A stretch of 56,391 bases of DNA from an uncultured virus (IMG/VR IMGVR_UViG_3300032116_000047) (lineage: Duplodnaviria > Heunggongvirae > Uroviricota > Caudoviricetes): the IMG/VR virus record IMGVR_UViG_3300032116_000047. One strand, written 5' to 3'. The notes under the pieces were generated by a model. That model saw only the letters and a program-made list of their open reading frames with translations, did no database searches and was not told the origin of the DNA. Below, in pieces: positions 1,356-53,250 of this stretch. Position 1 is the first letter of the stretch. Each line of letters begins with the position of its first letter. Both the position numbers and the translations under genes were made by a program.

Positions 1356-1688
1356 TTAAAAATCGCCTTTGTCTAAAAAATAGGTGTTTTGTTCAGAAAT
1401 TAATTTTAAATTATTGTGAATTGTATTACAGTGTGAGTTAAATTTTTCAATATCTTCTTGAGATAAATTAAACCATTCTCCTTCTACTTTTTTTTCTTTA
1501 TAGATTTTGTGAAGCATAGCTTCTATTTTTGTCCCCCATTCCGATTGAAAAGAATCTACCAAATAGATTTCAGAAGCATTTCCAGTTTTAAATTCTTTGA
1601 TTCTCTTTTCTGGAGTTCTTCTAGTATATCCTATTTTGTGTAATTTTTGACCATTTATCTCAGAACATACTAAATAAATATTAAACAT
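1356..1688 (-). CDS. GIY-YIG superfamily (T5orf172/MUG113-like) protein
   Basis: IYLV...KIGYTRRTPEKRIKEFKTGN...IEAMLH...EGEWF pattern. Confidence 0.8.
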   Translation of the reverse strand: MFNIYLVCSEINGQKLHKIGYTRRTPEKRIKEFKTGNASEIYLVDSFQSEWGTKIEAMLHKIYKEKKVEGEWFNLSQEDIEKFNSHCNTIHNNLKLISEQNTYFLDKGDF

Positions 1689-1712
1689 AGGGTATATATA
1701 ACCCCATTGATT

Positions 1713-1826
1713 TTACTTACTAAAAATTTTAGCAATTTTTTTCATTCTTATAAATTTCTTAGGTGGATAGTATGTTGAAATATCTACTTCTTTTACATAA
1801 ACACCTGGTGATACATATTTAGTCAT
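1713..1826 (-). CDS. 37-aa microprotein: tail-sheath N-terminal motif plus RxxKI tag
   Basis: Manual translation MTKYVSPGVYVKEVDISTYYPPKKFIRMKKIAKIFSK. The start overlaps the upstream gene's stop, and SPGVYVKEVD matches the myovirus sheath N-terminus. Confidence 0.75.
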   Translation of the reverse strand: MTKYVSPGVYVKEVDISTYYPPKKFIRMKKIAKIFSK

Positions 1827-2325
1827 TTGATTTCTTTTTATTTTTTTTACCAGCTCTTCTTGTTTTTTTATGAGTTTCTACTTTACTATCACCATATTTA
1901 AAATCTAAATAAAACAATTGATTAGAAGGTGCAGAAAGAGGTTGAAGTCCCTTTTTCATTAGTTCTTTATATCCAGGGTCATCCTCTAACTTCTTTTCAA
2001 CAAATTCCCCGCCTTCAATAATTGCATCAATTTTTCCATCACGATTTTCAGATTGAACTTTACTTTTTACTTCGTTAATTTCTTCTTCTGAATCAAAACA
2101 TAAATCCATAGCTATTGTTTTTGCGGCTACTTTCATAGCCATAGGTAAAATGTTAGGAAATTCAGGTGTAGTGTTTTCAGTCGCTGAAGTATTCTCTTCC
2201 AGTATTTGATTAGATTGATTTTCTACTAATTGCTCAATATTACCCCAATGTGAGTTTGTGAGGCCAGATTTTTCTAAAATAGATGACCATTTATTTATTA
2301 AATCTTCTTTTGAAGGCTTATTCAT
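1819..2325 (-). CDS. truncated gp23-like major capsid protein paralog with inserted RxxKI tag
   Basis: LINKWSSILE, ILPMAMKVAAKTIAMDL and QPLSAPSNQLFYLDFKYG resemble gp23-family N-terminal blocks. Only 168 aa; insert contains NRDGKIDAII; basic tail. Confidence 0.7.
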   Translation of the reverse strand: MNKPSKEDLINKWSSILEKSGLTNSHWGNIEQLVENQSNQILEENTSATENTTPEFPNILPMAMKVAAKTIAMDLCFDSEEEINEVKSKVQSENRDGKIDAIIEGGEFVEKKLEDDPGYKELMKKGLQPLSAPSNQLFYLDFKYGDSKVETHKKTRRAGKKNKKKSND

Positions 2326-2357
2326 TGAATTAAATTTTCTTTCTTATATAAGAAAAT

Positions 2358-10052: not shown

Positions 10053-13000
10053 TTAATCATTAGCTGTTTCAGCTGATGGATCCGTTATTTTACCAGGTTG
10101 AGTTGCTCCACCAGGTAGAGGTTCTAATACCGCTGGAGATACAAAATGAAACGCTTGAATACCCATAGTCACAACTCTATAAGAGTTAGACGCCGGAGCA
10201 TCAGCAAATTCAATTGATACACTTTGGTCGTTAACTCTAATAGACTCAGTCTCAACAGTGGCACCAGTAGTAATGTCATAGATTTGAACAATCACATCCA
10301 TAGTTCCTAAAGCGTGCTCACAAGAGAATGTAGTCTCAACACCATCACCAATTGTGAAAGCTGATACAACCGGAGTTATATTTAATCTTTCAGCAACAGT
10401 AACTTTTGTATCACTAATCTCAGCCATAACATCAACACCACCAACTTTTAAGATAGTCTCAACGTCAACTTCACCTTCAAATGTTCTGATTCCAGAAACA
10501 GGAGCCGCAATAGTCTCAGCTAAACTAATTGTGTTATCAACATCGTTAAGAACGATTGTTTTCTCATCAACAAGTGCTAATTCAGCAATTGCATCAGACA
10601 CAGTTGAAACTAACTCAGCAGATACCTCAGCGAATGAATCAAGTTCAGTCAAATCAGTATTACTTAATAAGTAAGCAACTTTGTTAGAAAGTTCAGTAGA
10701 TAATTCAACCTCAGCCTTTTCAGCTCTTTCGATTTCAGCTTTTAATGCGTCTTCTAAAGATAACTCAGCAGATGTAGCTCTCACTACTTCATTACTCAAA
10801 TCTGTTGTAGCAGCACTTGATAAGTCCTGAATAGCAGTAGTTAAGTCACTATCAGCTCCTTGGAATGCCTCAACGATTTCAGTTAATGAATCTAAAGCAG
10901 CTGGATCGATGTTAGAAATAACAGCGTCTATTCTTCTATCTAAATTATTCAAAGAATTTTTGAAATCATTAGACATGTTATTAATGTCTAATTTAACAGA
11001 CCAGTTCTTCCAAGCCTCAAAGTTTACTAAATTAGAAGGTTGGAATTCACTTTGACTTAAATAGTATTTTAATGAAGAATTCTCACTTTCTCTGTCTCTT
11101 TTTAATCCACTATAGAAATCAATAGCCTCACTGTATGAATTAAATGTATAAACACTATTATAATAAGAAGATGTCATACTAACTGGGTAAACTTCTTGTG
11201 AGAAGATTTCAGTGTTCATTAAATTCAAATCAGATAGATTATTATCTAGATTAGATTCGATGTTGGAAATGTCTGATGAAAAGTCAGAATTAATATAGTT
11301 TGTATATTCATTCCATTGACCTGTGTAGTAATTACCACCTTCTTCATAACCAACTGTAGTAATAATACTAGCCTCAGTTTCTTCAGCTCTTGAAATCTCA
11401 GCAGATAAGTCTGAATTGATTGTAGACACATTATCTGATAATAAATCCTCTAAAGAAGCCTCAGCAGCAAGTGCTCTATTTTCTTCAGCATCAACGTCAG
11501 CAACTCTATTAGCAACTTCAGAAGATAAATCATTTCTTAATACTAACTCAGCAGCAAGTGCTCTTAACTCCTCAGAGTCAACATCAGCAACTCTATCAGC
11601 AACTTCTTTAGCTAAATCAGATGCTAAACCATCCTCAGCGTTTAATGCTCTACTTTCTTCAGCTTTAACAGCGTCTTGTCTGTTAACAACCTCAGAAGAT
11701 AAAGATGATGTTAAAGAAGCCTCAGCAGCAAGTGCTCTACTTAACTCAGTAGATAAAGCGTCAGCTCTATTAACTTCCTCAGAAGATAATCTATCTGTTA
11801 AAGATTTCTCAGCAGCAGTAGCTCTACTTAATTCAGTAGATAAAGCATCAGTTCTATCAACGATTTCTCTTGATAAACCAGAAGCCAATGATAACTCAGA
11901 AGATGTAGCTCTTGAAACTTCAGATGATAAATCAGCAGCTGCAGCGTTAGATAAGTTAGTGATTGCGTTATTGATGTCTCCATCAGCAGCTTGGAATGCA
12001 GAAACGATCTCAGTTAATGAATCTAAAGCAGTTGGGTCAATGTTAGAAATAACATTGTCTAATTTATCCTCTAAAGATACTTCAGTTGAAGTAGCTCTAG
12101 CGATTTCAGAAGCTAAGCTTGTAGATAATGTAGCTTCAACAGCCATTGCTCTACTTTCTTCAGCGTTTACGTCATCAATTCTATTAGAAACCTCAGTTGA
12201 TAAATCTGAAGTTAATTTAGTCTCAGCAACGATAGCTCTTGACTCTTCAGCATCAACATCAGATGTTCTTGCAACAACTTCAGCAGAAAGTGCAGAAGTT
12301 AAAGAAGCTTCAGCAACAAGTGCTCTTGATTCTTCAGCGTCAACATCAGCGACTCTATTAGAAATCTCTGTATTTAAGTTAGATGTTAATAATGTCTCAG
12401 CAGCAGTAGCTCTTGATTGTTCAACATCAACATCAGAAATTCTTGCTGCGATTTCAGCGTTTAAGTCGTTTGTTAATTGAACCTCAGCAGCAGTAGCTCT
12501 TGATTGTTCAGCATCAACATCATTTGTTCTATTTACAATCTCTGTAGATAAGTTTGCTTTGATTAAGTCTTCAGCAGCCTTAGCTCTAGAAACTTCAGAT
12601 GATAAATCAGATGTTAATACACCTTCAGCAGCTTCAGCTCTAGAAACTTCAGATGATAAGTTAGAAGTTAATACTCCTTCAGCATACTCAGCTCTTGATT
12701 GCTCAATAGATAATTTATTTGTTAAAGATAATTCAGCAGCAATTGCTCTACTTTCTTCGTTACTTACAGCAGTTGTAGCAGCGTTAGATAAGTTAGAAAT
12801 TGCTCCATTTATATCACTATCAGCTGATTGGAATGCAGAAACGATCTCAGTTAATGAATCGATAGCAGCAGCATCAACGTTAGAGATAACGAATTCAACT
12901 TTTGTGTTTAAAGATAACTCAGCAGCAGTAGCTCTTGAAATCTCAGCAGCTAAATCAGATGTTAATACACCTTCAGCAGATTCAGCTCTCGAAATCTCAT

Positions 13001-16000
13001 CAGCAAGTGCCTCATCGTTAGAAGTAACATAAGAGTCTAATTTATTATTAAGATTAGCATCACCTGCAATTCTTGATGATTCTTCAGCACTAATAGCATC
13101 CACTCTGTTAGTAACCTCAGTTGATAATTTAGAATCTAATGAATCCTCAGCAGCGATAGCTCTTGTCTCTTCAGCATCAACATCAGCAACTCTGTTAGCA
13201 ACTTCAGATGATAAGTTAGCTCTTAATACAGACTCAGCAGTCATTGCTCTACTTTCTTCAGCATCAACGTCAGCAACTCTATTAGAAACCTCAGAAGAAA
13301 GGTCTGATCTAAGAACAGCCTCAGCAGAAAGAGCTCTTGTTTCTTCAGCATTTACGTCAGCAACTCTATCAGCAACTTCTTGAGATAAATCAGATGTTAA
13401 TTTAGCATCACCAGCAACTCTTAAAGACTCTTCAGCAGATACTGCGTCTTTTCTGTCAGCGATTTCTTTAGTTAAATCAGTAGTTAATACAGCTTCAGCA
13501 GCCATAGCTCTACTTTCTTCAGCATCAACGTCAGCAACTCTATCAGAAACTTCTTTAGTTAAATCAGATACGATTGAAGCCTCAGCAGAAGTAGCTCTAA
13601 CGATTTCAGAAGAAAGTGCAGAAGATGCACTATTTGATAAGTTAGAAATTGTGTTATTTAAGTTTCCATCAGCAGATTGGAAAGCCGCAACGATTTCAGT
13701 TAATGAATCTAATGCAGCAGAATCTGTGTTAGAAATTACATTGTTTAATTTATTCTCCAATGAAGTCTCAGTTGCAGTAGCTCTTGAAATCTCAGAAGAT
13801 AAATCACTTTTAATGATAGTCTCAACTGATTCAGCTCTTTCTTGTTCAGCATCAACATCAGCAGTTCTGTCTAAAATCTCCTTAGTCAAGTCGCTTTTAA
13901 TGATAGCCTCAACTGACTCAGCTCTTTCTTGTTCAGCATCAACATCAGCAATTCTATCAGCAACTTCTTTAGTTAAATCAGATGTCAATTTAGCTTCAGC
14001 TGATATTGCTCTACTTTCTTCAACATCAACATCAACGATACGTGCAGAAATCTCAGCATTTAAGTTAGATGTTAATAATATTTCAGCAGCAGTAGCTCTA
14101 GATTGTTCAACATCAACATCAGCAACTCTTGCAGAAATTTCAGCATTTAAATTAGTTGTTAAAATACCTTCAGCTGCAATCGCTCTTGATTCTTCAGCAT
14201 CAACATCAGCAGTTCTATTAACAACTTCAGTAGAAAGTGAGTTAGATAAAGCGGTTTCAACAGATTTTGCTCTTGTCTCTTCAGCATCAACATCAGCAGT
14301 TCTATCAGAAACTTCTTTAGCTAAATCATTAGTTAATACTAATTCAGCAGATTCAGCTCTCGCTAATTCTATTGATAAAGCATCAGCTCTGTTAGTTTCT
14401 TCAGCAGATAATCTATCAGTTAATGATAATTCAGCAGTCTCAGCTCTTAAAATTTCAGCATCTAAGTTTGTAGAAGCCGCATTTGATAAAGTAGTGATTG
14501 CGCCATTAATATCACTATCAGCATCTTGGAACGCTTTAACGATTTCAGTTAATGAATCTAATGAATCAGGAGTTACGTTTTCAGTAATATAAGAGATAGC
14601 ATCAGATAAATCAGCTTCAGCTCTTGTAGCTCTTAGAATCTCAGAAGATAAATCACTTTTAATGATAGCCTCAATTGATTCAGCTCTTACTTGCTCAGCA
14701 TCAACATCAGCAATTCTATCAGCAACTTCTTTTGCTAAATTATTAGTCAATACTAATTCAGATGATAAAGCTCTACTTTCTTCAGCATCAACATCAGCAG
14801 TTCTATTAACTACCTCTGTAGATAATGAACTTCTTAATGCAGCCTCAGCAACAAGTGCTCTACTTTCTTCAGCATCAACATCAGCAGTTCTATTAACTAC
14901 CTCTGTAGATAATGCAGCTGTTAAAACAGTCTCAGCAGATGTAGCTCTTAATTCTTCAGCATCAACATCAGCAACTCTATTTGAAACCTCTGATGATAAA
15001 TCAGATCTTAATTGAGATTCAGCAACAAGTGCTCTACTTTCTTCAGCATTAACATCAGCAATTCTATCAGCAACTTCTTGAGATAAATCAGATGTTAATT
15101 TAGCCTCAGCTGACATCGCTCTAGATTCTTCATCATCTAAGTTAGATTGTAACTCAGAATCACCCATTGAACGAGCGCTAGCCTCTAAACCTAACTCATA
15201 AGTTAGAGAAGCAGTATCTGCGTTTCTTTCAGATATTTCAACTGATAGTTTAGTAGTCAAAGACAACTCAGCAGAAGTAGCTCTGGTGATTTCATTATTC
15301 AAATCTGTTGTAGCAGCATTTGATAAGTTTGTAATTGCATTATTGATATCACCATCAGCTGATTGGAATGCGGAAACGATTTCAGTTAATGAATCAAGTG
15401 CAGCAGGATTAGTGTTAGAAATAACAAAATCAACTTTTGTGTTTAATGATAACTCAGCAGAAGTAGCTCTTAGAATTTCAGAAGACAAATCACTTTTAAT
15501 GATAGTCTCAACTGATTCAGCTCTACTTTCTTCAGCATTTACATCGGAAATTCTATCAGAAGTTTCTTTAGCTAAGTCACTTTTAATGATAGCCTCAACT
15601 GACTCAGCTCTTGTCTGTTCAGCATCAACATCAGCAGTTCTATTAACCACCTCTGTAGATAATGAAGCAGTTAAAACAGCTTCAGCAGACATTGCTCTTG
15701 ACTCCTCAGCATTAACATCAACTATTCTATTAGAAATTTCGTTACTTAATGCTGTTGTTAAAGAAGTCTCAGCAGCAATTGCTCTACTTTCTTCAGCATC
15801 TACGTCAGATGTTCTAGCAACTATCTCAGCTGATAAATTAGATGTTAAAACACCTTCAGCTGCGGTAGCTCTTGCTTCTTCATCATCAACATCAGCTATT
15901 CTTGCATCAGTTTCTGATGCTAAATCAGAAGCTAATTGTGATTCAGCTGCAGTAGCTCTTGCTTCTTCGTTATCAACATCAGCTATTCTAGCCGTAGTCT

Positions 16001-16367
16001 CGTTACCCAAAGCATTTGTTAGAGATAATTCAGCAGATGTAGCTCTTGCTACTTCTGTTGAAAGATTGGAACCAGCAGAACTTGCTAAGTTCTGGATTGC
16101 TCCGTTAATGTTGTCATCTGCTGATTGGAAAGCTGAAACAATTTCCGACAAAGAATCTAAAGCATCGGGACTAGTGTTTGATAGAACATTTTCTATCAAT
16201 CCATCTAATCTATCAACTTCAGAGCTAAGTTCAGAGCTAGTTTCGGCGATTAAACCAGTAACGAATTCTTTGTTCGCCACATCAGTTCCTTCCACAGGAG
16301 CTGCAACATTTTTAATTAGATTTAGATCTAAGTCTAAATCCACCAAAAATTTTTTACTTTTACCCAT
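10053..16367 (-). CDS. giant alpha-helical coiled-coil fibre protein
   Basis: 2104 aa of E-x-x-R-A-x-x-A-E repeats punctuated by 7 (L/I)DSL(T/S)EIVxAF motifs (fibre LDTLxEL-type), plus a C-terminal GDG...H.LGT.DV.VQ(I)YD beta domain. Confidence 0.85.
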   Translation of the reverse strand: MGKSKKFLVDLDLDLNLIKNVAAPVEGTDVANKEFVTGLIAETSSELSSEVDRLDGLIENVLSNTSPDALDSLSEIVSAFQSADDNINGAIQNLASSAGSNLSTEVARATSAELSLTNALGNETTARIADVDNEEARATAAESQLASDLASETDARIADVDDEEARATAAEGVLTSNLSAEIVARTSDVDAEESRAIAAETSLTTALSNEISNRIVDVNAEESRAMSAEAVLTASLSTEVVNRTADVDAEQTRAESVEAIIKSDLAKETSDRISDVNAEESRAESVETIIKSDLSSEILRATSAELSLNTKVDFVISNTNPAALDSLTEIVSAFQSADGDINNAITNLSNAATTDLNNEITRATSAELSLTTKLSVEISERNADTASLTYELGLEASARSMGDSELQSNLDDEESRAMSAEAKLTSDLSQEVADRIADVNAEESRALVAESQLRSDLSSEVSNRVADVDAEELRATSAETVLTAALSTEVVNRTADVDAEESRALVAEAALRSSLSTEVVNRTADVDAEESRALSSELVLTNNLAKEVADRIADVDAEQVRAESIEAIIKSDLSSEILRATRAEADLSDAISYITENVTPDSLDSLTEIVKAFQDADSDINGAITTLSNAASTNLDAEILRAETAELSLTDRLSAEETNRADALSIELARAESAELVLTNDLAKEVSDRTADVDAEETRAKSVETALSNSLSTEVVNRTADVDAEESRAIAAEGILTTNLNAEISARVADVDVEQSRATAAEILLTSNLNAEISARIVDVDVEESRAISAEAKLTSDLTKEVADRIADVDAEQERAESVEAIIKSDLTKEILDRTADVDAEQERAESVETIIKSDLSSEISRATATETSLENKLNNVISNTDSAALDSLTEIVAAFQSADGNLNNTISNLSNSASSALSSEIVRATSAEASIVSDLTKEVSDRVADVDAEESRAMAAEAVLTTDLTKEIADRKDAVSAEESLRVAGDAKLTSDLSQEVADRVADVNAEETRALSAEAVLRSDLSSEVSNRVADVDAEESRAMTAESVLRANLSSEVANRVADVDAEETRAIAAEDSLDSKLSTEVTNRVDAISAEESSRIAGDANLNNKLDSYVTSNDEALADEISRAESAEGVLTSDLAAEISRATAAELSLNTKVEFVISNVDAAAIDSLTEIVSAFQSADSDINGAISNLSNAATTAVSNEESRAIAAELSLTNKLSIEQSRAEYAEGVLTSNLSSEVSRAEAAEGVLTSDLSSEVSRAKAAEDLIKANLSTEIVNRTNDVDAEQSRATAAEVQLTNDLNAEIAARISDVDVEQSRATAAETLLTSNLNTEISNRVADVDAEESRALVAEASLTSALSAEVVARTSDVDAEESRAIVAETKLTSDLSTEVSNRIDDVNAEESRAMAVEATLSTSLASEIARATSTEVSLEDKLDNVISNIDPTALDSLTEIVSAFQAADGDINNAITNLSNAAAADLSSEVSRATSSELSLASGLSREIVDRTDALSTELSRATAAEKSLTDRLSSEEVNRADALSTELSRALAAEASLTSSLSSEVVNRQDAVKAEESRALNAEDGLASDLAKEVADRVADVDSEELRALAAELVLRNDLSSEVANRVADVDAEENRALAAEASLEDLLSDNVSTINSDLSAEISRAEETEASIITTVGYEEGGNYYTGQWNEYTNYINSDFSSDISNIESNLDNNLSDLNLMNTEIFSQEVYPVSMTSSYYNSVYTFNSYSEAIDFYSGLKRDRESENSSLKYYLSQSEFQPSNLVNFEAWKNWSVKLDINNMSNDFKNSLNNLDRRIDAVISNIDPAALDSLTEIVEAFQGADSDLTTAIQDLSSAATTDLSNEVVRATSAELSLEDALKAEIERAEKAEVELSTELSNKVAYLLSNTDLTELDSFAEVSAELVSTVSDAIAELALVDEKTIVLNDVDNTISLAETIAAPVSGIRTFEGEVDVETILKVGGVDVMAEISDTKVTVAERLNITPVVSAFTIGDGVETTFSCEHALGTMDVIVQIYDITTGATVETESIRVNDQSVSIEFADAPASNSYRVVTMGIQAFHFVSPAVLEPLPGGATQPGKITDPSAETAND
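10700..16160 (-). repeat. degenerate ~29-codon (11+18 aa) coding repeats
   Basis: For example STEVVNRTADVDAEESRALVAEAALRSSL, reiterated; DNA motif tcttcagcatcaacatcagc recurs many times. Confidence 0.85.
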
Positions 16368-18767: not shown

Positions 18768-20174
18768 TTAAATTACACCATATACTCTAAGACTATCTAC
18801 AGTCCAAGTTCCGTTAGATGTTCCGGTTGTTGTTATTGTTATAGTTGCTCCACCTGTTATTGACTCTGAGTATTTTAGTGTTCTACCAGCCTCATGTAAG
18901 TCACCTGCTCCAGTCGCGTCAAATCTAATATTTCTACTTCTTTTATTGACAACACCAACTAGTATATTGAATGTAACAGTACCTGAAGCATTTATGTTAC
19001 TTAGAAATCCACATTCAGATTCGATTATTATACGAGAATAAGAATTGGAAGCTAAAACATAGGTGAAAGCAGTTGTATTTGTTGTTCCGGTTTGTGCAGT
19101 TTCTTGAGTATTTATCAATATAACAGCTCCGGAAGCCGGACTAAGACCAGATGTACCAGATGTACCCGTAGTACCGGATGTACCACTTGTACCACTTGTT
19201 CCTGATGTGCCATTCACACCACTAGTTCCTGAAGTTCCATTAACACCACTAGTTCCTGAAGTTCCATTAACACCTGATGTACCAGACGTAGCAGATGTAC
19301 CGGATGTACCTGTAGTACCAGATGTACCTGTAGTACCTGATGTTCCATTAACACCAGAACTACCAGATGTTCCATTTACTCCTGATGTACCAGACGTAGC
19401 AGATGTACCAGATGTACCAGACGTAGCAGATGTACCAGATGTGCCAGATGTACCACTTGTCCCGGAGGTTCCATTAACACCAGAACTACCAGATGTTCCA
19501 TTTACTCCTGATGTACCAGACGTAGCAGATGTACCAGATGTACCAGACGTAGCAGATGTACCAGACGTAGCAGATGTGCCAGATGTACCTGTAGTGCCGG
19601 ATGTTCCATTTACTCCTGATGTACCAGAAGTACCTCTTGTTCCTGATGTACCACTAGTTGCTGAACTACCGGATGTACCGGAGGTTCCAGTTGTTCCAGA
19701 AGTACCGGAGGTTCCGGAGGTTCCATTAATACCAGAGGTACCACTTGTTCCGGAGGTTCCATTAATTCCAGAACTACCAGAGGTGCCAGATGATCCAAAA
19801 AAGTTTCCATCAACTCCCGAAGTTCCCGATGTACCCGAAGTTCCCGATGTACCCGAAGTTCCTGATGTACCAGAAGTACCAGTTGTTCCGGATGTACCAG
19901 AAGTGCCTCTTGTCCCGGATGTACCAGAAGTACCACTTGTCCCGGACGTACCATTCAATCCAGAAGATCCAGATGTACCTGAACTACCTGCTAAAACAAA
20001 AATATTCCAATTTGTTAAATCACCAGAAGGAGGAAGAGAGCCAATTGGTATAAGAGGACTTGTAGCAATATAAGTATCGTTATTATAACTAACTAATTCA
20101 CCTTCATAATATGAAATAGTACTTAATCCCTCAAATCCTGACCATCCGCCTTTCCAAGTTGTATATCCTGCCAT
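18768..20174 (-). CDS. Gly-Thr-Ser collagen-like fibre protein
   Basis: N-terminal [16 protein letters not shown] (CBM5/12-like), about 280 aa of (G-T/S-S)n, beta-rich C-terminus. Confidence 0.8.
19145..19990 (-). repeat. 9-nt period coding repeat (Gly-Thr-Ser)
   Basis: gatgtacca/gaagttcc variants in tandem. Confidence 0.9.
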
Positions 20175-20197
20175 TATATTCTATATATTTTTAATTT

Positions 20198-23100
20198 TTA
20201 TGTAAATAGTGAGAATGATAAACTCACTATATTAATATTTGCTGGTGGATTTTTTGTGTTTTTTACAACCACATCAAATTTATCACCTACTTGAGCACCA
20301 ACAATACCAGTAAGAGTCATTGTTGTAGTTGCGTTTGAGTTTGGATTAGTAGCAACTGGTACTGGAACTATCTCTTGGCTACCATTAAATCCGGATGTTT
20401 TTCTAATAGCAAATAGTAAAGATTGGTTATTTGCATTAAAAAATGAAACTTGAACATTATATTTCAAATAAACAATTGATGATCCGGTTGCAGATGTTAA
20501 ACCTAAAGTCATAGAGTTTTGACTACCTGTTGCTATATTAAAATTATTATTATAATCAACTATTGTATTACCAACTCCAGATAATAAAAAGTAATTAGTA
20601 ATATCAACAAAAGTTTGAATATTCGATTGTCCATCAAAATAAATATAACCTCTTGAACCTAAAGCTCCTTGTGCTATAGACTCTATATCCGATTTTGTCA
20701 ATAAATCATCAGTTGTAGCTAAAGTTCCTGATTTAGCAGGAAAACTATAAGTAAATGTTTGTCCAGATGGAATTTGTGTTGTGTTTAAAAAAGCAGTTCC
20801 ACTTGAAGTAGGACTACCCGATAATCTAAATGAACCAGTTGCTGAGAAGCTTCCATTAAGTTGTAAATTGTTATTTATAAAACGAAGATTGTCTAAAGCA
20901 ACAGCCTCATATTGAAATCCATTAGATATTAACAACTTACCATCACCATTAAGATAGTTTGTGACATAACCAAATCCAGAAGTAACCATTATATCCCAAT
21001 TAGGATTTATGTCTGGAGTCGAAGAAAATGCCGGAATGCTTGTTTTGGCTATGTAAATCTGAGAAACACTTCCACCATATCTTACAATATCATTTTCACC
21101 ATAAGGAGAAGTCAATAACCACTGGCCCTGCCAAGTTAATGGAAGACCGTCAGCTCCACTCGATCCAGCTGTTCCGGAAGTACCAGTTGTACCTGATGTA
21201 CCATCAGTACCGGTCGTGCCACTTGTACCAGAAGTTCCGCTAGTCCCAGTTGTACCAGAAGTTCCGCTAGTTCCAGTTGTACCAGAAGTTCCAGCAATTG
21301 CTATTAAAGACCATTCAGCATTAACATCAGGTTGAAAACCAATATTTCCATCAATAACAGATATATACGAACTACCATCATAAGTAACAATATCGTTTAT
21401 ATAATATGTACTCAAACTATCCCATATTCCTTGATAGTTAAAACCAATACCAGAAGATCCGGATGTTCCACTAGTTCCAGAAGTTCCACTAGTTCCTGAT
21501 GTTCCTTTAGTTCCTGATGTCCCACTAGTTCCTGAAGATCCTCTAGTTCCTGATGTTCCAGTCGTACCGGAGGTACCATTTATTCCAGAAGTACCATTTA
21601 TTCCAGAAGTACCATCTATACCAGAAGTTCCGCTAGTTCCAGATGATCCGTCACCACCAGATGCTCCATCGAGATTAACTATCCAACTCAATAAGTCTGA
21701 ACTTCCCACTTTATTTGTGATTAGAAATTCTAAATATCCAGTTGATGGATTGTATTGAGTAACATCACCTTGTAAATAGTTAGATAAGTCGGATGCTATA
21801 ATAATATTTTGAGCAGTACTATATCCCAAATCTGTTGCTATTATTATACTAAATGTGTTACCTACATTTGTAGTAGGATCACTTAAATCAATAGAACTGT
21901 TATATTCATATCTATATAAATCTCCATTAAATCCAGAACTACCAGAAGTTCCACTTGTTCCAGAACTACCAGAAGTTCCACTTGTTCCAGAGCTTCCGTC
22001 AAGTCCAGCAGGTCCTTGTATAGAACCAAGATCAACCCAACCATCAAGTGTAGCAGATGATGATATTGGATCATAAATATAAACCGAAGTAGTATCAATA
22101 ACTAAAATTGTTGTTAATAAAAGTGGTTGTGTAGGACTTAATAAACCACCAAAAGTAGCAATTAATGTTGGATAATCCGAAACAGAGGATTCTATTTTTA
22201 GTGTTTCACCAGGCTCTCCTTTTTCACCGCTCGTACCACTAGTTCCAGTTGTACCAGAAGTTCCAGTTGTACCAGAAGTTCCTCTTGTGCCACTCGTACC
22301 AGAAGTTCCTCTTGTACCACTCGTACCAGAAGTTGCTGATGTACCACTAGTTCCAGTTGTACCCGACGTTCCTGATGTTCCATCCGCTCCTGATGTTCCT
22401 GATGTTCCATCCGCTCCTGATGTTCCTGATGTTCCGTCTGTTGCTGATGTACCACTAGTCCCATCTATTGCTGATGTACCACTAGTTCCTGATGTTCCAT
22501 CCAATGCAGACGTTCCTGAAGTACCTGAAGTACCAGAGGATCCGTTGTAAGCACCAACTGCTACTATTAAATCATCGCCTAAACTAAAATTTGTTGTACC
22601 AGTTCCAATTGAATTTAATAAAACAACTGGAATCTGCCAATAGTTAAAGTTTGGAGAAGGTTCTATTATTTGTATAGGTGTTCCACTTATTGTCCATTTT
22701 TGATAATTTTCACTTAAATATCTATCTTGTATTAAAATCTCTTGACCTTCTCTATAAAGAGAGATAAAGTTATCAACATCAGTAACATCTGAAGTAAACA
22801 TATTTACATATATGTAAGTAGAGTTTATTTGAGTTGAGTTATTCCAACTAATAAAACCTGGATTTGGATTCCCAGAAATGACACTCGTATTTGCCTCATA
22901 GAAAAAATAACTCGTAGATTGACCATCTTTACCGGATGTGCCGGAAGTCCCATCTAAACCGCTTGTTCCGGAAGTTCCAGCTGGTCCTAAAATACTTCCA
23001 CCATCTACCCATCCACTTTGACCATATACCCAAAGATGACCATCTAAGTCATCAACATAAGCATTTCCTAAAACAGATGGTTCAGGTAAAGATGAAGTAC

Positions 23101-23644
23101 CAGAAACTGTACCATTTAATTGGAACGGATTACCTTGTGGGCCGTCAGGTCCTGTTGGACCGGCAGGTCCTGTTGCTCCGACAGGACCAACTTCACCAGC
23201 TGCTGTAACCCACTGATAATAAGCTCCATCATAAATATATACATAAAGATAACCATAGTCGGAATCGTACCAAAAAGATCCTGTTCTTATTGAATCCGTG
23301 CCAGTACCGTTTGGAATATTATCTTGATAAAAGAATTGAATATTTACACTATTAACATAATTCTTTATTTCATTACTAACAAAAATTGGTGCTTTCTTTT
23401 GTAAAGCATCAAATAATTGTTTTATTCTTGGAAGAGCTAATTTTGCCTCATTTAAAGAAGAAAATGGTATTGATATTACTCTACCGCTTTTTAAGCTTAC
23501 ATTTACCAAGTTATTTTTAACAAAAACATTAATAACTGTATATGGGTTTATTGTATATGTTACCGTGCCGTTATTGTCCATAATCTGAACATTTGTATCA
23601 TTACCGGCCAAAGGTCTTAAAAATTTATCCCAACTATAACTCAT
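20198..23644 (-). CDS. multi-domain collagen-like (GPT and GTS) fibre protein
   Basis: 1148 aa; several GTS tracts separated by globular modules, including two W...Y..NDIV.Y.GS CBM5/12-like units. Confidence 0.8.
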   Translation of the reverse strand: MSYSWDKFLRPLAGNDTNVQIMDNNGTVTYTINPYTVINVFVKNNLVNVSLKSGRVISIPFSSLNEAKLALPRIKQLFDALQKKAPIFVSNEIKNYVNSVNIQFFYQDNIPNGTGTDSIRTGSFWYDSDYGYLYVYIYDGAYYQWVTAAGEVGPVGATGPAGPTGPDGPQGNPFQLNGTVSGTSSLPEPSVLGNAYVDDLDGHLWVYGQSGWVDGGSILGPAGTSGTSGLDGTSGTSGKDGQSTSYFFYEANTSVISGNPNPGFISWNNSTQINSTYIYVNMFTSDVTDVDNFISLYREGQEILIQDRYLSENYQKWTISGTPIQIIEPSPNFNYWQIPVVLLNSIGTGTTNFSLGDDLIVAVGAYNGSSGTSGTSGTSALDGTSGTSGTSAIDGTSGTSATDGTSGTSGADGTSGTSGADGTSGTSGTTGTSGTSATSGTSGTRGTSGTSGTRGTSGTTGTSGTTGTSGTSGEKGEPGETLKIESSVSDYPTLIATFGGLLSPTQPLLLTTILVIDTTSVYIYDPISSSATLDGWVDLGSIQGPAGLDGSSGTSGTSGSSGTSGTSGSSGFNGDLYRYEYNSSIDLSDPTTNVGNTFSIIIATDLGYSTAQNIIIASDLSNYLQGDVTQYNPSTGYLEFLITNKVGSSDLLSWIVNLDGASGGDGSSGTSGTSGIDGTSGINGTSGINGTSGTTGTSGTRGSSGTSGTSGTKGTSGTSGTSGTSGTSGSSGIGFNYQGIWDSLSTYYINDIVTYDGSSYISVIDGNIGFQPDVNAEWSLIAIAGTSGTTGTSGTSGTTGTSGTSGTSGTTGTDGTSGTTGTSGTAGSSGADGLPLTWQGQWLLTSPYGENDIVRYGGSVSQIYIAKTSIPAFSSTPDINPNWDIMVTSGFGYVTNYLNGDGKLLISNGFQYEAVALDNLRFINNNLQLNGSFSATGSFRLSGSPTSSGTAFLNTTQIPSGQTFTYSFPAKSGTLATTDDLLTKSDIESIAQGALGSRGYIYFDGQSNIQTFVDITNYFLLSGVGNTIVDYNNNFNIATGSQNSMTLGLTSATGSSIVYLKYNVQVSFFNANNQSLLFAIRKTSGFNGSQEIVPVPVATNPNSNATTTMTLTGIVGAQVGDKFDVVVKNTKNPPANINIVSLSFSLFT

Positions 23645-23660
23645 TTTTTATTTTATATTT

Positions 23661-24809
23661 TTAAATTATTATATTCAAATTCATTACTACACCATTTAAA
23701 TTATTCTGAGCCAAATCACCAACATTAAATGTTAAAGAATATGTTCCGGTAGTAGATATAGAATTTACAACACCAGCCGTTCCAGTAATTATCATTTCAG
23801 AATCCATAAGGCCAATTTCACCATCTCTAATATCGTCAATGTAGTCAATAACTAAGTCTCTTAACTTATCTTTGTAAAGAATACTAGATGTTCCCCAATT
23901 TGAAAGAGAAATAGAAGTTGAGAAAGTTAATCCATCATTTTCCGTATTAAATCCAAAACTGGACGTAAGTCCTAAGTAATTTACGATGTAGCTTCCGGTA
24001 GCACCAGCAGTTGAATTCCAATAAACAACAGGAGGTATATCATCAAGTAGTGGAGATATGGTATCTATATCAATATTTGGATTCTCTAAAACATAATTCA
24101 TTAATGAATAAGCTTGTTTGGCATTAAATTCATCAATAAAATTTAAGAAAACTGTTCCAAAACTTTCATCATCTATAATTAAAAATGTAGAGTTTAAGTT
24201 TATAGAATTAATATACGGGAGACCAAAGTAAATAAGAGCTCTTTTCGGAGAACCTTTATCATAAACAACAACTGATTCTCCGACTACAAATGATTTTATG
24301 TCAGTATATTCCAATCCAGTAAATGATGTAGCATTTTGATTTAAATCATCATTAAAGAATGAATAATTTTCATCAATAATACCAACCATAACATCTAAAA
24401 AAACATTATAGTTACAATTTGGATTAGTTAAATACAATTGAGGAATTCGGTGAGCAGAATTTCCAGTCAAAACTAACATTTGAGAAAAAGTTAAATTTTG
24501 AACAGGATTATTATAGTATGAATAACTTATATAATTATTATCAGCTACGACAGACTTTGGATCATAAGTTGCTTTGATTGCTAAAAATGTAGCGTTATCT
24601 CCTAAACCTAAATGATTAAGTAAATAATTTACTTGACAAGCCTTTAGAATAATTCTACCTCTTAAAAGTTGTTTATAAGGCATTCTCAAATCAGAAATAG
24701 GAAGTCTATCAACTACACCAGATCCTTCAATAGCTACAAATTCGCCATTTCCTGGTTTTATATATTGACTACTTTGTCCGAATAAAGAAGTTCCACAGAT
24801 TGAAGCCAT
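23661..24809 (-). CDS. virion structural protein
   Basis: 382 aa in the structural cluster; TAATATATA upstream (24831-24839); paralog at 17345..18160. Confidence 0.7.
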   Translation of the reverse strand: MASICGTSLFGQSSQYIKPGNGEFVAIEGSGVVDRLPISDLRMPYKQLLRGRIILKACQVNYLLNHLGLGDNATFLAIKATYDPKSVVADNNYISYSYYNNPVQNLTFSQMLVLTGNSAHRIPQLYLTNPNCNYNVFLDVMVGIIDENYSFFNDDLNQNATSFTGLEYTDIKSFVVGESVVVYDKGSPKRALIYFGLPYINSINLNSTFLIIDDESFGTVFLNFIDEFNAKQAYSLMNYVLENPNIDIDTISPLLDDIPPVVYWNSTAGATGSYIVNYLGLTSSFGFNTENDGLTFSTSISLSNWGTSSILYKDKLRDLVIDYIDDIRDGEIGLMDSEMIITGTAGVVNSISTTGTYSLTFNVGDLAQNNLNGVVMNLNIII

Positions 24810-34185: not shown

Positions 34186-34941
34186 ATGAGCAAGTCAAAA
34201 CAAGAATTAAATCGTGAAATTCAAGACGGAGTAGGCGATTGGGAATATAAAAAAAATATTCGAAAAAAAAATTCATTGACAAAAGAAGAGTTTCAGAAAA
34301 ATACAGTCAGACTTACTGATAAACAAAACGAACTCTACAAAGGAATTAGAAATAATATTCTAACAGTTGTTCATGGTCCAGCAGGAACAGCAAAAACATT
34401 TGTTACTTGTTACACAGCACTTGCTCTTTTAGCTGATAAAAAAATTGAAAAAATTATTATCACAAAACCGATTCAAGAAAGTGGTGAGAATTTAGGATTT
34501 CTACCTGGATCATTAGAAGATAAACTACACCCTTATAAACAATCTTACTATACTACTTTTTGTAAAATTATTGGTAAAGTAAATACTGATTTTCTTTTTT
34601 CAACTGAGGAAATTGTTTTTGAACCACTAGCATATATGAGAGGTTCTACTTATGATAATTGCATAATGCTACTTGATGAGTGCCAGAATGCTTCTATTAA
34701 ACAACTTATGCTTTGGATTACAAGATTAGGAACAGACTCGAGAGCAGTTATGATGGGTGACACATCTCAGTATGATGTTAGAAAAAAAGATTCAGGTTAC
34801 AATGATTTCATCAAAATGGTTGATGGAATGAAAGACCTAAATCTTTTCGAATTTACAAATGAAGATATCGTTAGAAATAAATTTCTTATTGAAATTGCTA
34901 ATAGATATGATAAGTATCGTTCTGAACAAAAAGATTTTTAG
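34186..34941 (+). CDS. phoH: PhoH-like ATPase
   Basis: GPAGTAKT, LGFLPGSLEDK, PLAYMRGST, LLDECQN, GDTSQYD, DIVRN. Confidence 0.95.
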   Translation: MSKSKQELNREIQDGVGDWEYKKNIRKKNSLTKEEFQKNTVRLTDKQNELYKGIRNNILTVVHGPAGTAKTFVTCYTALALLADKKIEKIIITKPIQESGENLGFLPGSLEDKLHPYKQSYYTTFCKIIGKVNTDFLFSTEEIVFEPLAYMRGSTYDNCIMLLDECQNASIKQLMLWITRLGTDSRAVMMGDTSQYDVRKKDSGYNDFIKMVDGMKDLNLFEFTNEDIVRNKFLIEIANRYDKYRSEQKDF

Positions 34942-45383: not shown

Positions 45384-46070
45384 ATGATGATTTGTAAAAA
45401 TTGTGGATTAGAAAAAGATACCTCTGAATTTTATAAAGGAAAAGGTAATTGTAAGTCTTGCATAAAAGATTATAATAAAAATTATTATAAAAATAATTAT
45501 TCATATTTCAAAGATAAAAGAGATAAATGGAACGAAGAAAATAGAGAATACAGAAATGAATATGCTATAAATACATATCATAATAATAAAGAGTATTATT
45601 CTAATAAAAGCAAAGAATATAGAAAGGAAAATAGAGAAAAATTAAATGAAAACAAAAAAGAATGGGATAGAAATAGACCAATTGAAGAGAAACGAAAATA
45701 TAGAAATGAATACGCTTTAAAAAAGAAAAAAGAAGATCCAGTTTATAATCTTAAATGTCTTATGAGAAGTTATGTTTCTTCTACTTTAAAAAATAAAGGA
45801 TATAAGAAGAGTTTAAAAACAATACAAATTTTAGGTTGTTCATTTGTAGATTTCAAAATCTATTTAGAATCAAAATTTGAGGATTGGATGACATGGGAAA
45901 ATAAAGGATTATATAACGGAGAAATAAAGTATGGATGGGATATAGACCACATTATACCACTATCGTCAGCAGAGACAGAAGAGGATGTAATAAAATTAAA
46001 TCACTATACTAATTTACAACCACTTTGTAGTAAATTAAATAGAGATATCAAAAAGAATCAAATTTTCTAA
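45384..46070 (+). CDS. HNH (homing) endonuclease with N-terminal CxxC..CxxC
   Basis: CKNC...CKSC, charged linker, WDIDHIIPLSSA...NHYTNLQPLCSKLN; oriented opposite to its neighbours. Confidence 0.85.
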   Translation: MMICKNCGLEKDTSEFYKGKGNCKSCIKDYNKNYYKNNYSYFKDKRDKWNEENREYRNEYAINTYHNNKEYYSNKSKEYRKENREKLNENKKEWDRNRPIEEKRKYRNEYALKKKKEDPVYNLKCLMRSYVSSTLKNKGYKKSLKTIQILGCSFVDFKIYLESKFEDWMTWENKGLYNGEIKYGWDIDHIIPLSSAETEEDVIKLNHYTNLQPLCSKLNRDIKKNQIF

Positions 46071-46602
46071 AGATAATTTCCAAATCTCTATAATGTTTAT
46101 GAACTCTTGTCATTCCCATTTTAGCAGTAATTATTTCTAAAGGATGTTGTAACTTAAGTGTAGTTCCTTCAAAATCAAACTCAATATATTTAGCACCATT
46201 ATCTTTAAAGAAATCAACTTCATACTCTTTTGTTTTTGAGAAAAAACCAGGTTTATATTTAAATACGATATAACCAAGTCGATTATCCATTCCTTCTTCA
46301 TCATCACCTAAATATGTATTATTATTGATATACCCAGAGTATCTATTTTCATCTTTGATAAGTATATCTATGTCATTGATATCTCTATGAATAAGACCCA
46401 ATAGAGTAAGTGCAATAGAACCCGAAATTATGTCATTTGGAAATTCTTTTTTTATAAAAGACAATCCTGTATGATATTTTTTTACCACATCTTTATTGAC
46501 CGAAAAATTAAGTTCATTTTGAATAAGTTTCAGTTTGAAATCTCTAAATTCTGGCAACAAATCTCTTTGTTGGTGGTTTTGTCTAGTAATATAGATTGAC
46601 AT
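46048..46602 (-). CDS. Pol-beta superfamily nucleotidyltransferase
   Basis: IISGSIAL...RDINDIDIL (GS plus DxD), third Asp in EVDFF, C-terminal KHYRDL. Confidence 0.8.
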   Translation of the reverse strand: MSIYITRQNHQQRDLLPEFRDFKLKLIQNELNFSVNKDVVKKYHTGLSFIKKEFPNDIISGSIALTLLGLIHRDINDIDILIKDENRYSGYINNNTYLGDDEEGMDNRLGYIVFKYKPGFFSKTKEYEVDFFKDNGAKYIEFDFEGTTLKLQHPLEIITAKMGMTRVHKHYRDLEIIFRKFDSF

Positions 46603-46866: not shown

Positions 46867-47292
46867 TTAGTCTTTACCAATAACTGAATCAATTTTTTCC
46901 AATCTTTTTATAACTCCACTATAATTAGAAACTTCTTCAGCTAACTTCTCACACTCAGAAATTACATACTCTTTCGTTCGATAGATGCCATCAAAATGTG
47001 GAAAGGATGGACAAAGATCACCTGCATGAGCACAATCAAAACCAATAATCCATCCACCATCTCCTTCATCCGAATAGGTTAATCCACCATGTACATGAAC
47101 ATTAATTTTTGAATATAGTTTATCGTAATCTAAACCATAAAGTTTATTATCCGATGTCAAAACAACATAACCACATAGAGCTTGAGATGTATTTCTTCTT
47201 ATGCAACATTCAACTTCTAATCCGTTTTTAGCGCTATAAGTCCAATCGTGATAATCACCTTCAGATTTTATTATTTCATTAATATTTTTCAT
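46867..47292 (-). CDS. conserved phage protein (CGYV / HGGLTY / GFDCAH family) with C-terminal RxxKI tag
   Basis: LCGYV, VHGGLTYS, WIIGFDCAHAGD; ends KRLEKIDSVIG. Confidence 0.8.
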   Translation of the reverse strand: MKNINEIIKSEGDYHDWTYSAKNGLEVECCIRRNTSQALCGYVVLTSDNKLYGLDYDKLYSKINVHVHGGLTYSDEGDGGWIIGFDCAHAGDLCPSFPHFDGIYRTKEYVISECEKLAEEVSNYSGVIKRLEKIDSVIGKD

Positions 47293-48104
47293 ATGTTAAA
47301 AATCATTTCTCCGTTTTCACTTAATTGACAGACAAAAGAGAATAGTGTCTGTTTATAACCAGAAAATCTTGGCTTTCTTGGCGGATTGACTCCTTCAAAC
47401 TTTGACCATAGATTTAAATCTATTATCTCAAATGAGTCAATCAAAACTTTTACTACTGCGTAGTCTTTGTGATTTGGAAAAGATAGTAAAAGTATTTGAT
47501 CTTTTTTATATTCAGATTTTGTAGTTATTGAAATTCTTTTCTGAAGCCTTACTGCATCAAAATGGTTTAGTATATTTACATTAAGAAGGCTATCTAAAAA
47601 CTCACTGTTATTTGTTGGTAAAAACAAATTAGTATTTTGTTTAGTAAATTTTATATATTCTCCATTTTCAAAGTCTTCAGTTGGCGGAATTATTTGCCAT
47701 CTTTGTCCAGTTTTATTATCAAACTCAAAAAATATTCTTAAACAGTCACACAAATAAGAAAATGTTTTTGGAGCCTTTTCTTCTAAAGAAGCAAGTCCGG
47801 TTCCATATCCATTTTTAGAAAGAACTATTCTATTACCCTCTAATAATTTGGATTTTATAAGTAGTACATCTTCTAAAATTTTTTGACAATTTGCATCATA
47901 TTCATTATCATTATAGTAAGATCTTGGGGAAATTGACGGACTTTTTTTAGTTCTTATTCCGATTACATTATCAAGACCTCGTATCACCGCTTGACCACCT
48001 CTTCCTACTCTTTGGTCATTATCACCAAAGATATAAATTTTTTGTGGATTACTATTTACTAAATCAGTACTCCAATTACCTTCAAATATTTCTACGCCTC
48101 TCAT
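47289..48104 (-). CDS. hypothetical protein with N-terminal FGDN...GGQA domain (possibly macrodomain-related)
   Basis: IYIFGDNDQRVGRGGQAVIRG...IGIRTKK...GYGTGLA is a recurrent phage motif; the fold call is inference. Confidence 0.65.
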   Translation of the reverse strand: MRGVEIFEGNWSTDLVNSNPQKIYIFGDNDQRVGRGGQAVIRGLDNVIGIRTKKSPSISPRSYYNDNEYDANCQKILEDVLLIKSKLLEGNRIVLSKNGYGTGLASLEEKAPKTFSYLCDCLRIFFEFDNKTGQRWQIIPPTEDFENGEYIKFTKQNTNLFLPTNNSEFLDSLLNVNILNHFDAVRLQKRISITTKSEYKKDQILLLSFPNHKDYAVVKVLIDSFEIIDLNLWSKFEGVNPPRKPRFSGYKQTLFSFVCQLSENGEMIFNI

Positions 48105-48438
48105 ATAAATCTCCCAACGTTGGTTTTTTTATTACATCCCATTTATCTTCTCCTAAAAGATAATCTATTTTAAGCTGTCTTAATTTAGATTTTGAGTATA
48201 TTGACATCATATCTATATATGATCCCATATTCATTCTTTCAAGTGTGACACGAATTCCTCTTTTACTGACATAATCTCGATAGATAGTATCTATATAATC
48301 ATATTCATAGTCCTCATAATAGTAATAGTCATGATAGTCTTCTCCATCATACCAATAGTAAAACCAACTATCATAGTATTGACTATTTTCTTTGTCAATA
48401 TCATTACCTATTATATCCCATTTACTCTTTTTCATCAA
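48082..48438 (-). CDS. Tyr/Asp-rich hypothetical protein with RxxKI tag
   Basis: YYDSWFYYWYDGEDYHDYYYYEDYEYDY; LRQLKIDYLLG. Confidence 0.7.
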   Translation of the reverse strand: MMKKSKWDIIGNDIDKENSQYYDSWFYYWYDGEDYHDYYYYEDYEYDYIDTIYRDYVSKRGIRVTLERMNMGSYIDMMSIYSKSKLRQLKIDYLLGEDKWDVIKKPTLGDLYERRRNI

Positions 48439-49347: not shown

Positions 49348-49737
49348 TCAGAATAATTTTCTAAATAAACTATTCAATTTAGCTTCTCTTATTTCACTTT
49401 TATCTAATTGTAATTCAGAAAATTCAAAATAGACTATAAGTGTCATACAAGGTATCAAATATAAACAAAAACTAAATAAGTCACCAAAAAATATTGAAAA
49501 AACTATATTAAAACCAAAAATCTTTTCTGTAAAATATATTATTGTAAGATTTATTACAATACATATCATAGATACTAAAAACATCTGTTGTTTATCTCTA
49601 CTGGTAAAGTCATCATGATAAATAAAAAGAAATGGAAAAAAAGGCACAAACGAGCCAATAAAAGATAGCATAGTAGAAGATCTTAAAATCTCTAACCAAC
49701 TATTTCTTAAAACTTTTCTTAATTTATAAAAAAACAT
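49348..49737 (-). CDS. membrane protein with C-terminal RxxKL tag
   Basis: About three hydrophobic segments; ends IREAKLNSLFRKLF. Confidence 0.7.
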   Translation of the reverse strand: MFFYKLRKVLRNSWLEILRSSTMLSFIGSFVPFFPFLFIYHDDFTSRDKQQMFLVSMICIVINLTIIYFTEKIFGFNIVFSIFFGDLFSFCLYLIPCMTLIVYFEFSELQLDKSEIREAKLNSLFRKLF

Positions 49738-50078
49738 TATTGTAAAATATCTTTAATTTTTTCATCTCTCATATATTGATTTATCGTATCTGGAAATTTA
49801 TTAAAAGAGCCTTTAATAAAACTCAAAAACAATTCTAACTGAAAGTCATTCTCATCTCCAAATGTTTTAAGACTAAAGTTTCCAAATTTTTTACCAGATT
49901 GCATGTTACTCCACATTCTGATTTCTTGTAGTTGAAAAAGACCTAAGTTATCATCTATATTTATATTGAGGTAATTATTTTCTATATCAGTTTTTATACT
50001 GAATAAATTAGGTTTTTCTGACCAAGTCTGTGAAAATCCTAATTCTTTAACTAAATCTATGAAATCTTGTTTTGTCAT
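49737..50078 (-). CDS. hypothetical protein with C-terminal RxxKI tag
   Basis: Ends MRDEKIKDILQ. Confidence 0.7.
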   Translation of the reverse strand: MTKQDFIDLVKELGFSQTWSEKPNLFSIKTDIENNYLNINIDDNLGLFQLQEIRMWSNMQSGKKFGNFSLKTFGDENDFQLELFLSFIKGSFNKFPDTINQYMRDEKIKDILQ

Positions 50079-52401: not shown

Positions 52402-52769
52402 AAACCTAAATCTTCAATTTTCTTATCTCTTAATTTGGCCAAATCTTCGTCTTTTAAACAAATTGAAAATCCCCATTCTTCTTTGACTAACCAATGGTCA
52501 ATTATATCTGCATCAAATCCATTTTTTGTTGAATAATCCTCTTTTACAAGAGGATACTTTCCGGTATAGATACCAAAGAGCTCTGGGAATATAACAATAG
52601 ATTCAGCAGATGAAATACTTTTCCAACAATTATCAATAACTAAATCATGTATATCATATCTACCCTCAAAAAGAAATTTACCCTTATGATGAAATCTGAT
52701 ATTGACAAAGTACCTTTTAGATACTTTGTCTTTTAATCCTCTTAATTGTATGACTCTTTTATACCCCAT
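52398..52769 (-). CDS. hypothetical protein with C-terminal RxxKI tag
   Basis: Ends LRDKKIEDLGL. Confidence 0.7.
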   Translation of the reverse strand: MGYKRVIQLRGLKDKVSKRYFVNIRFHHKGKFLFEGRYDIHDLVIDNCWKSISSAESIVIFPELFGIYTGKYPLVKEDYSTKNGFDADIIDHWLVKEEWGFSICLKDEDLAKLRDKKIEDLGL

Positions 52770-53234: not shown

Positions 53235-53250
53235 TATTTCATTTCTTAAC

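Follow-up and report, generated by a model that had tools for sequence, protein, structure and literature searches.

A tail-sheath arm joined to a basic tag in an uncultured phage, and a set of similarly tagged fragments of phage core proteins

In phage T4, the capsid targeting sequence of the internal proteins is a short terminal peptide common to many unrelated phage proteins, and in eukaryotes the microProteins are single-domain, dominant-negative copies of larger proteins. The sheath proteins of contractile tails (e.g., gp6 of phage XM1; PMC10457771; PDB 9ezm, 8bky, and 8bl4) carry a short N-terminal arm by which the subunits are locked to one another, and the same N-terminal motif opens the 37-amino-acid (aa) peptide described here, whose long orthologues are collinear with sheath residues 7-63. 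The peptide is encoded by a short open reading frame (ORF) of the huge uncultured phage IMGVR_UViG_3300032116_000047, within a stretch of 56,391 nucleotides (hereafter the window) that belongs to a virus contig of 118 kb with 30% GC. Behind the arm it carries a basic tag, and its gene adjoins that of a mini-capsid (Table 1).

An earlier note, made from the DNA letters alone, had read this ORF (1713-1826) as 37 codons of which the first 17 copy the sheath arm and the rest is only the tag. The minus-strand translation agrees with the coding assignment, and the plus strand is closed. The sheath ancestry of the arm is supported by a 73-aa orthologue that aligns with residues 7-63 of the clade sheath (25 of 71 positions identical, E 7e-8), its tag sitting in the loop after the arm. 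Of 119 translated viral sequences matching SPGVYVxExD, 115 are the N-termini of long sheath-like ORFs. Direct profile matches to solved sheaths are weak (family profile, residues 1-15: 9ezm, E 0.34; 8bky and 8bl4, E 1.9), and the top PDB match of the profile, ahead of these sheaths, is to residues 305-323 of T4 gp17, a segment of the terminase ATPase (E 0.054). The description of the rest as only the tag holds for the window copy and fails for the family, where many members have sheath- or terminase-like sequence after the tag. Among 43 post-tag parts of at least 15 aa, 15 resembled clade sheath residues 27-66, 14 a terminase segment around IIITSTPNG, and 6 both. The family probably began as an N-terminal piece of sheath into which the tag was inserted. 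The 37-aa form is the minimal arm-plus-tag unit, and such forms recur.

The peptide is not the sheath protein itself. It has the arm motif and is devoid of the subtilisin-like and C-terminal polymerising domains (PF04984/PF17482), and a separate sheath of ~1,300 aa that retains its own arm is encoded in all five relatives inspected. The clade's full-length sheath homologues carry the arm Y[KR]RPGIF in 106 of 107 cases. BLAST of the 37 aa against the sheath of one relative gave no alignment. The peptide alone had no match in Pfam or PHROGs, its sequence is present in the ESM Atlas without a usable look-alike, and the long orthologues (L006, L008, P0273, P0279, and P0308) matched neither Pfam nor PHROG families. 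The six frames of the 118-kb contig contain a single instance of the arm pattern [ST]P[GA][VI].[VITSF].E, inside the peptide ORF, and neither a sheath gene nor a second arm motif was found on this contig. AlphaFold2 predicted a helix at residues 25-34 and an extended arm for the 37-mer (predicted template modelling score 0.34). Two variant arrangements were noticed: P0308, a 152-aa family member with two tags, consists of scaffold-like repeats (by eye), a tag, a sheath arm, and a second tag, and W01 (L278:1342-1646) has a second sheath-arm mini-gene, of the own-clade type, that overlaps a capsid C-terminal fragment.

Mini-capsid homologues numbered 520, and 46 distinct mini-capsid loci were examined, one duplicate contig having been dropped and several near-duplicates kept. 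The earlier note had considered that relatives might have no orthologous small ORF, or that the adjacent DNA might continue as frameshifted sheath sequence. A peptide orthologue is, however, found in 32 of the 46 loci, and the neighbouring DNA is a T5orf172 gene. The mini-capsid stop is overlapped by 30 of these orthologues (mostly by 8 or 14 nt), while one lies a gene further on and one is fused. An in-frame fusion of mini-capsid and peptide at L020 is one A short in a homopolymer run relative to the near-identical L027, and was not used as evidence. Among the 14 loci without the peptide are five in which the T5orf172 gene comes within 19-36 nt (i.e., clean absence), one with just 127 nt of flank, and one that retains the tag with a decayed arm. 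The peptide gene is conserved but dispensable. In W02 (L060:1480-1620), the arm beside the mini-capsid is decayed, and another arm-like tagged ORF is present elsewhere. A profile search recovered 70 clusters of the peptide family at 50% identity, with lengths of 32-104 aa and one of 152 aa; arm and tag were both detected by pattern in 54 of them.

The family was aligned as the window copy plus 27 of the 32 orthologues (one omitted and four near-duplicates omitted). The reading frame is intact in all 28 copies, which are 30-78% identical, and P7, G8, R27, K30, I31, and F35 are invariant. P7 is encoded by all four proline codons and S6 by both serine families. The pooled ratios of nonsynonymous to synonymous differences (pN/pS), obtained by simple counting from pairs that are not independent, were 0.59 for the arm, 0.61 for the tag, and 0.30 for the mini-capsid; the linker gave 1.6, which is not taken as positive selection given the uncertain alignment there. 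The codon diversity at P7 and S6, together with the pN/pS values, argues for selection at the protein level. In two close variants, codons 7-19 show only synonymous changes (five in one and one in the other, the latter covering the ORF from codon 10 only), and codons 21-36 show four replacements each; the sense codons are free of indels.

The tag is not confined to the sheath-arm peptide. The pattern R..K[ILV]..[ILVF] within 12 residues of the C-terminus is found in 10 of 141, 88 of 758, 37 of 543, and 17 of 247 ORFs of G000-G003, compared to 0.5-2.1 in shuffled sequences, and in 125 of 1127 ORFs of W01, so that roughly 7-12% of the proteins of these genomes carry it. The tag was never found together with an N-terminal MKxLKxFE-like motif (0 of 277, with ~17 expected), an exclusion that size and expression class may confound. 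With a pattern for the basic flavour that was written after examples had been seen, 45 ORFs of up to 95 aa were collected from five records, and the genomes have about ten tagged snippets each. Among the 43 of these ORFs scanned against PHROGs, part of them also against Pfam, nine matched core families at E≤0.01. Six are gp23 segments (down to 4e-10), and the others are a portal (E 0.009), a prohead protease (PHROG E 4.9e-4), and a family-B polymerase motif (Pfam E 1.3e-4). In the own-clade comparison, prohead protease similarity reached E 4e-4. Eight further basic-tag ORFs resemble capsid, protease, or tube (own-clade comparison, or E 0.01-0.03), five belong to the sheath-arm family, and two match fibre-like or unnamed repeats. 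In total, 24 of the 45 are statistically backed as pieces of core proteins (capsid, sheath, portal, protease, tube, polymerase, and fibre-like). Another six, compared with motifs of helicase, polymerase, gp32, and adenylate kinase, come first to third of 1,246 proteins, by rank only and without significance, and no parent was found for 15 in the PHROG and Pfam scans or the own-clade comparison. Among 60 other tagged ORFs, the single core-family match was the mini-capsid. In an own-clade hidden Markov model test (E<0.01), 9 of 78 non-acidic-tag ORFs passed, compared to 0 and 1 in shuffled sets; the test is noisy, with 10 of 161 acidic-tag ORFs passing versus 7 shuffled ones and 12 of 150 untagged small ORFs passing as well.

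Several other tagged proteins were noticed. The contig's second basic-tag ORF (G000:C1:47020-47166, 48 aa) is an apparent orthologue of the Walker-B-like helicase fragments of relatives, and eight more tagged ORFs lie in the window (46048-46602, 46867-47292, 48082-48438, 49348-49737, 49737-50078, 52398-52769, 52769-53098, and 53088-53258). A decayed, tag-ended capsid paralogue of 249-261 aa is found in several relatives (L112:10812-11561, L139:11730-12479, and L066:814-1599). The UVR coiled-coil of the clade's ClpC-like ATPase is copied by tagged small proteins (E 7e-7 to 8e-3) at G000:C1:60394-60690, just left of the window, and at L134:17343, L117:11814, L280:5719, and L283:7460; such copies make a link between the tag and a Clp protease possible. 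SmpB-like and ClpP-like genes were recognised by eye (G000:C1:20414-20848 and 23096-23662), and the tag might have come from a transfer-messenger RNA as a degradation tag. ARAGORN, however, found no such RNA either in the window or across the 54 loci covering G001-G003, although divergent or split ones could escape it. In the 735-kb record LR756501, a 456-aa protein (L004:4089-5459) has a sheath arm from residue 305 and a capsid N-terminal segment at residues 339-369 (E 3e-6); its N-terminal part looks by eye like a decayed family-B polymerase and has no Pfam match. The 10-kb L004 locus contains eight DPYG motifs, and neighbouring proteins share a DPYGEE-type motif, which suggests a different clade's counterpart of the tag.

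The tagged genes differ from structural genes in their upstream sequences. The nine sheath, capsid, and tube genes shown all have ATATATA in front of them, as do 107 of 174 genes with the N-terminal motif; the corresponding counts are 1 of 42 for genes with the basic tag and 4 of 246 for the remaining tagged genes. Counted per transcription unit, the corresponding figures are 144 of 175, 9 of 42, and 24 of 248. Upstream of the mini-capsid, 27 of 40 loci have TTYYTAYAA and not one has ATATATA. We infer that ATATATA marks late and TTYYTAYAA non-late promoters. A scan for sigma-70 promoters showed no excess (47 versus 41.8 in shuffles).

The arm resembles the sheaths of other phages more closely than those of its own clade, the latter being represented by the arms of relatives rather than by the window phage's own sheath. 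The peptide matched foreign arms at a mean of 11.0 of 16 positions and own-clade arms at 6.0, and at positions left unfixed by the search pattern it scored 13.3 against foreign and 4.2 against own-clade arms. At the unfixed flanks it carries the commonest residues of foreign sheaths (F/Y at -2 in 84 of 105, V at -1 in 76, S at +11 in 96, and Y at +13 in 77). Unlike the own-clade arm, 26 of 31 family arms have S before PG, while two (L040 and L046) read R-PG-I, i.e., the own type. A tagged capsid fragment matches 50 phage records, mostly capsid genes where annotated, and not its own genome's capsid. Several of the copies thus lie nearer to a broad T4-like consensus than to the corresponding protein of the clade.

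The explanation that we put forward tentatively, at somewhat below an even chance, is that the tagged snippets, including the peptide, are decoys against host sensors of conserved phage proteins. The mini-capsid and the peptide would be co-produced, either ahead of the late structural proteins or separately from them. The arm would occupy, yet not activate, a sensor or protease of the host that recognises conserved phage motifs, the host proteins would thereby be kept off the real sheath, capsid, portal, protease, or polymerase, and the tag would dock the complex on a common partner (i.e., a sink, a membrane, or a protease). A binder of conserved phage motifs is called for because capping of assembly interfaces explains only part of the tagged set, which, judged by similarity, extends to segments of family-B polymerase, prohead protease, and terminase ATPase. 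Host sensors are the best-known binders of this kind. Bacterial STAND (signal transduction ATPases with numerous domains) receptors sense capsid, portal, terminase, tube, polymerase, and helicase (10.64898/2026.01.04.697583), and the prohead protease is reported to associate with an enzyme of the type I cyclic-oligonucleotide-based anti-phage signalling system (CBASS; PMC13728456). The parents of the tagged fragments overlap this target list and include the CBASS-associated protease. Foreign-like copies would fit a decoy in which the recognised form is preserved as the real protein diverges, and the scarcity of the structural-gene motif upstream of tagged genes and the dispensability of a conserved gene also count in favour. 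More generally, we consider it close to an even matter that these phages keep a modular, renewable repertoire of peptides, in which conserved motifs of own and foreign core proteins are mounted on a clade-specific docking helix and neutralise host sensors or rival phages, with a sister clade using the DPYGEE-type tag.

Several points weigh against decoys. STAND sensors bind folded cores via extended surfaces, and since such sensors read folds, a 17-residue unstructured arm cannot present what they bind; the sheath is named there only as a possible future target (10.64898/2026.01.04.697583), and a literature search found no sheath sensor in print. The catalytic motifs are buried in their folded parents, such that a sensor would need to meet the unfolded form, and a decoy could trigger a sensor instead of blocking it. 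Only 13 of 31 family arms favour foreign sheaths at positions not fixed by the search pattern, and several tagged fragments (tube and capsid C-terminus) are of the own type. The motif upstream of the window's own mini-capsid (2343..2356) is ambiguous and fits neither promoter pattern exactly, and the recognition of fragments through their conserved motifs is itself a detection bias.

Poisoning of competitors, which we rate as unlikely though with appreciable weight, would have the free arm take the handshake position on the sheath of co-infecting myoviruses, while other fragments invade folding or assembly intermediates of the capsid, portal, and enzymes of rivals and the tag pulls the captives to a sink. 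The sheath N-terminus is described as an inter-subunit strand, one that extends the C-terminal sheet of a different subunit (PMC10457771), and capping by a free arm would be structurally reasonable; the earlier note had proposed it. Arm plus tag is the minimal recurring unit. The peptide agrees with foreign sheaths at unconstrained flanks and differs from the own-clade arm, so that the tail of the phage itself could be spared. Huge phages reportedly target competitors via spacers of clustered regularly interspaced short palindromic repeats (PMC7162821), and assembly blocking is known as a defence (Tab; PMC10884400). The own-type fragments, including the R-PG-I arms, would nevertheless hit the phage itself, and a monovalent 17-residue strand would have to outcompete a cooperative lattice. 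The polymerase, helicase-like, and kinase-like catalytic motifs are no interfaces, and capping alone leaves unexplained why polymerase, protease, and helicase-like motifs carry the same tag. Of the possible forms of capping or poisoning, we favour least the one directed at the phage's own sheath, because the clade arm, nearly invariant as noted above, is unlike the peptide's. It is improbable that the peptide is a placeholder or timing factor that keeps the phage's sheath subunits capped for as long as the tube is not ready, a task that the mini-capsid would have for the head. The collinearity of the long orthologue with the clade sheath, the retention of the gene beside the mini-capsid, and the own-type arms are consistent with such a role, but the peptide departs from the own-clade arm where that arm is invariant (S before PG), does not align with a relative's sheath in BLAST, is lost in 14 of 46 loci, has no structural-gene motif upstream, and is far from the tail module in relatives.

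That the peptide is neutral debris, i.e., 5' gene fragments brought by recombination onto a cassette encoding the tag, or else a sheath duplicate in decay, is very improbable. The pN/pS values of arm and tag are weaker evidence of constraint than that of the mini-capsid, and lengths are variable, whereas the intact frames, the codon diversity at P7 and S6, the synonymous-only changes in the arm, and the 70 clusters largely refute it. A sheath pseudogene is ruled out by the intact frame, the synonymous arm changes, and the lack of sheath remnants downstream. A split gene, with the peptide supplying in trans an arm missing from the main sheath, is hardly credible, given that an arm is present on the main sheath of all 5 relatives and on 106 of 107 full-length homologues. 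Because the window's own contig stops short of the sheath gene, this reading was judged from relatives, for which it is refuted. The weight that remains, beyond decoys and the alternatives to them, lies with unforeseen roles tied to the partner of the tag.

Table 1. Positions of the peptide ORF, its parts, and its neighbours in the window.
Feature	Position	Strand	Remark
37-aa ORF: sheath N-terminal arm, linker, and basic helical tag	1713..1826	minus	
Copy of tail-sheath N-terminal (handshake) arm, residues 3-19	1770..1820	minus	
RxxKIxxIF tag, basic flavour, residues 27-35; predicted helix 25-34	1722..1748	minus	
168-aa mini-capsid: gp23-type N-terminal segments with tag inserted	1819..2325	minus	PHROG 138
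Acidic-flavour tag inside mini-capsid, residues 95-102	2020..2043	minus	
Promoter-like A/T motif upstream of mini-capsid	2343..2356	minus	
Weak terminator-like hairpin just 3' of peptide stop	1687..1707	minus	Consensus match only
T5orf172/MUG113 gene, usual downstream neighbour	1356..1688	minus	No sheath sequence 3' of peptide

The N-terminal part of the mini-capsid resembles the T4-type major head protein (PHROG 138, E 3.9e-7). The earlier note had the start of the peptide overlapping the stop of this gene; the two ORFs do overlap, by 8 nt (1819-1826), but the start lies 5 nt upstream of the stop codon and not on it. The conservation of this overlap suggests that the two genes are translationally coupled. 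A-rich DNA at 1827-1870 (minus strand) encodes a Lys/Arg-rich tail of the mini-capsid and serves as leader of the peptide gene, and this tail may be a by-product of the A-rich translation start region. The loop of the hairpin at 1687..1707 contains a TATATA run ahead of the next gene.

The public records nearest to it belong to uncultured phages with genomes of 635 and 642 kb, and near-identical DNA was found chiefly in lake and freshwater metagenomes. PMC7162821 assigns genomes above 634 kb to the Mahaphage clade, for which Bacteroidetes are the predicted hosts; size and relatedness suggest the same host group here. Elsewhere in the window are very long repeat proteins (10053-16367 and 18768-23644; a 2104-aa helical repeat protein and two GTS-repeat-rich proteins) and, by eye, PhoH-like and cysteine-synthase-like genes (34186-34941 and 53924-54796). 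In the relative G002, ARAGORN called a transfer RNA with an amber-reading CTA anticodon (L107:19132-19204).

No description of such tagged fragments was found in the full-text literature on huge phages, sheath mimics, decoys, and assembly interference, a search that reached few subscription papers and not the supplements of PMC7162821 and 10.64898/2026.01.04.697583, whose annotations might bear on this. If the fragments are decoys, they would be ready-made baits, such that a synthetic 37-mer could pull out bacterial tail-sheath sensors, and the set would map the phage motifs that the immune systems of these phages' hosts look out for. If the broader view of a peptide repertoire is true, each fragment would mark a surface read by some receptor, including the first tail-sheath sensor. 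If they are poisons, they would be a naturally occurring collection of inhibitors with broad action on the assembly of myoviruses and contractile systems. In either case the shared helix points to a hub read by a sizeable share of these genomes' proteins, and the peptides are short enough to be synthesised, by which an uncultured phage becomes testable.

Compared to sheath proteins, the peptide has no sheath body and cannot polymerise, carries a foreign helix right after the arm, and coexists with a separate sheath gene. The tag is C-terminal or internal and is exclusive of the N-terminal MKxLKxFE-like motif, unlike the T4 capsid targeting sequence, which is N-terminal and found on head-packaged proteins. 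Like the microProteins, the peptide is small and conserved and copies the part through which a larger protein interacts; unlike them, the copy is shorter than a domain, often follows the sequence of other phages, and carries a modular tag. It is also similar to Tab, the tail assembly blocker of a Pseudomonas prophage, in being a small phage protein that could act on the tail assembly of others, while Tab targets the tape measure protein, has an anti-Tab partner, and is not described as a copy of a virion protein in the abstract of PMC10884400. If the peptide is a decoy, it would share with Ocr of T7 (PMC12409349) the mimicry of a recognised pattern that absorbs a defence protein. Ocr, however, mimics DNA, whereas the mimics here would be linear pieces of phage proteins, about ten per genome, on a shared tag. 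Tab and Ocr are analogues in action only.
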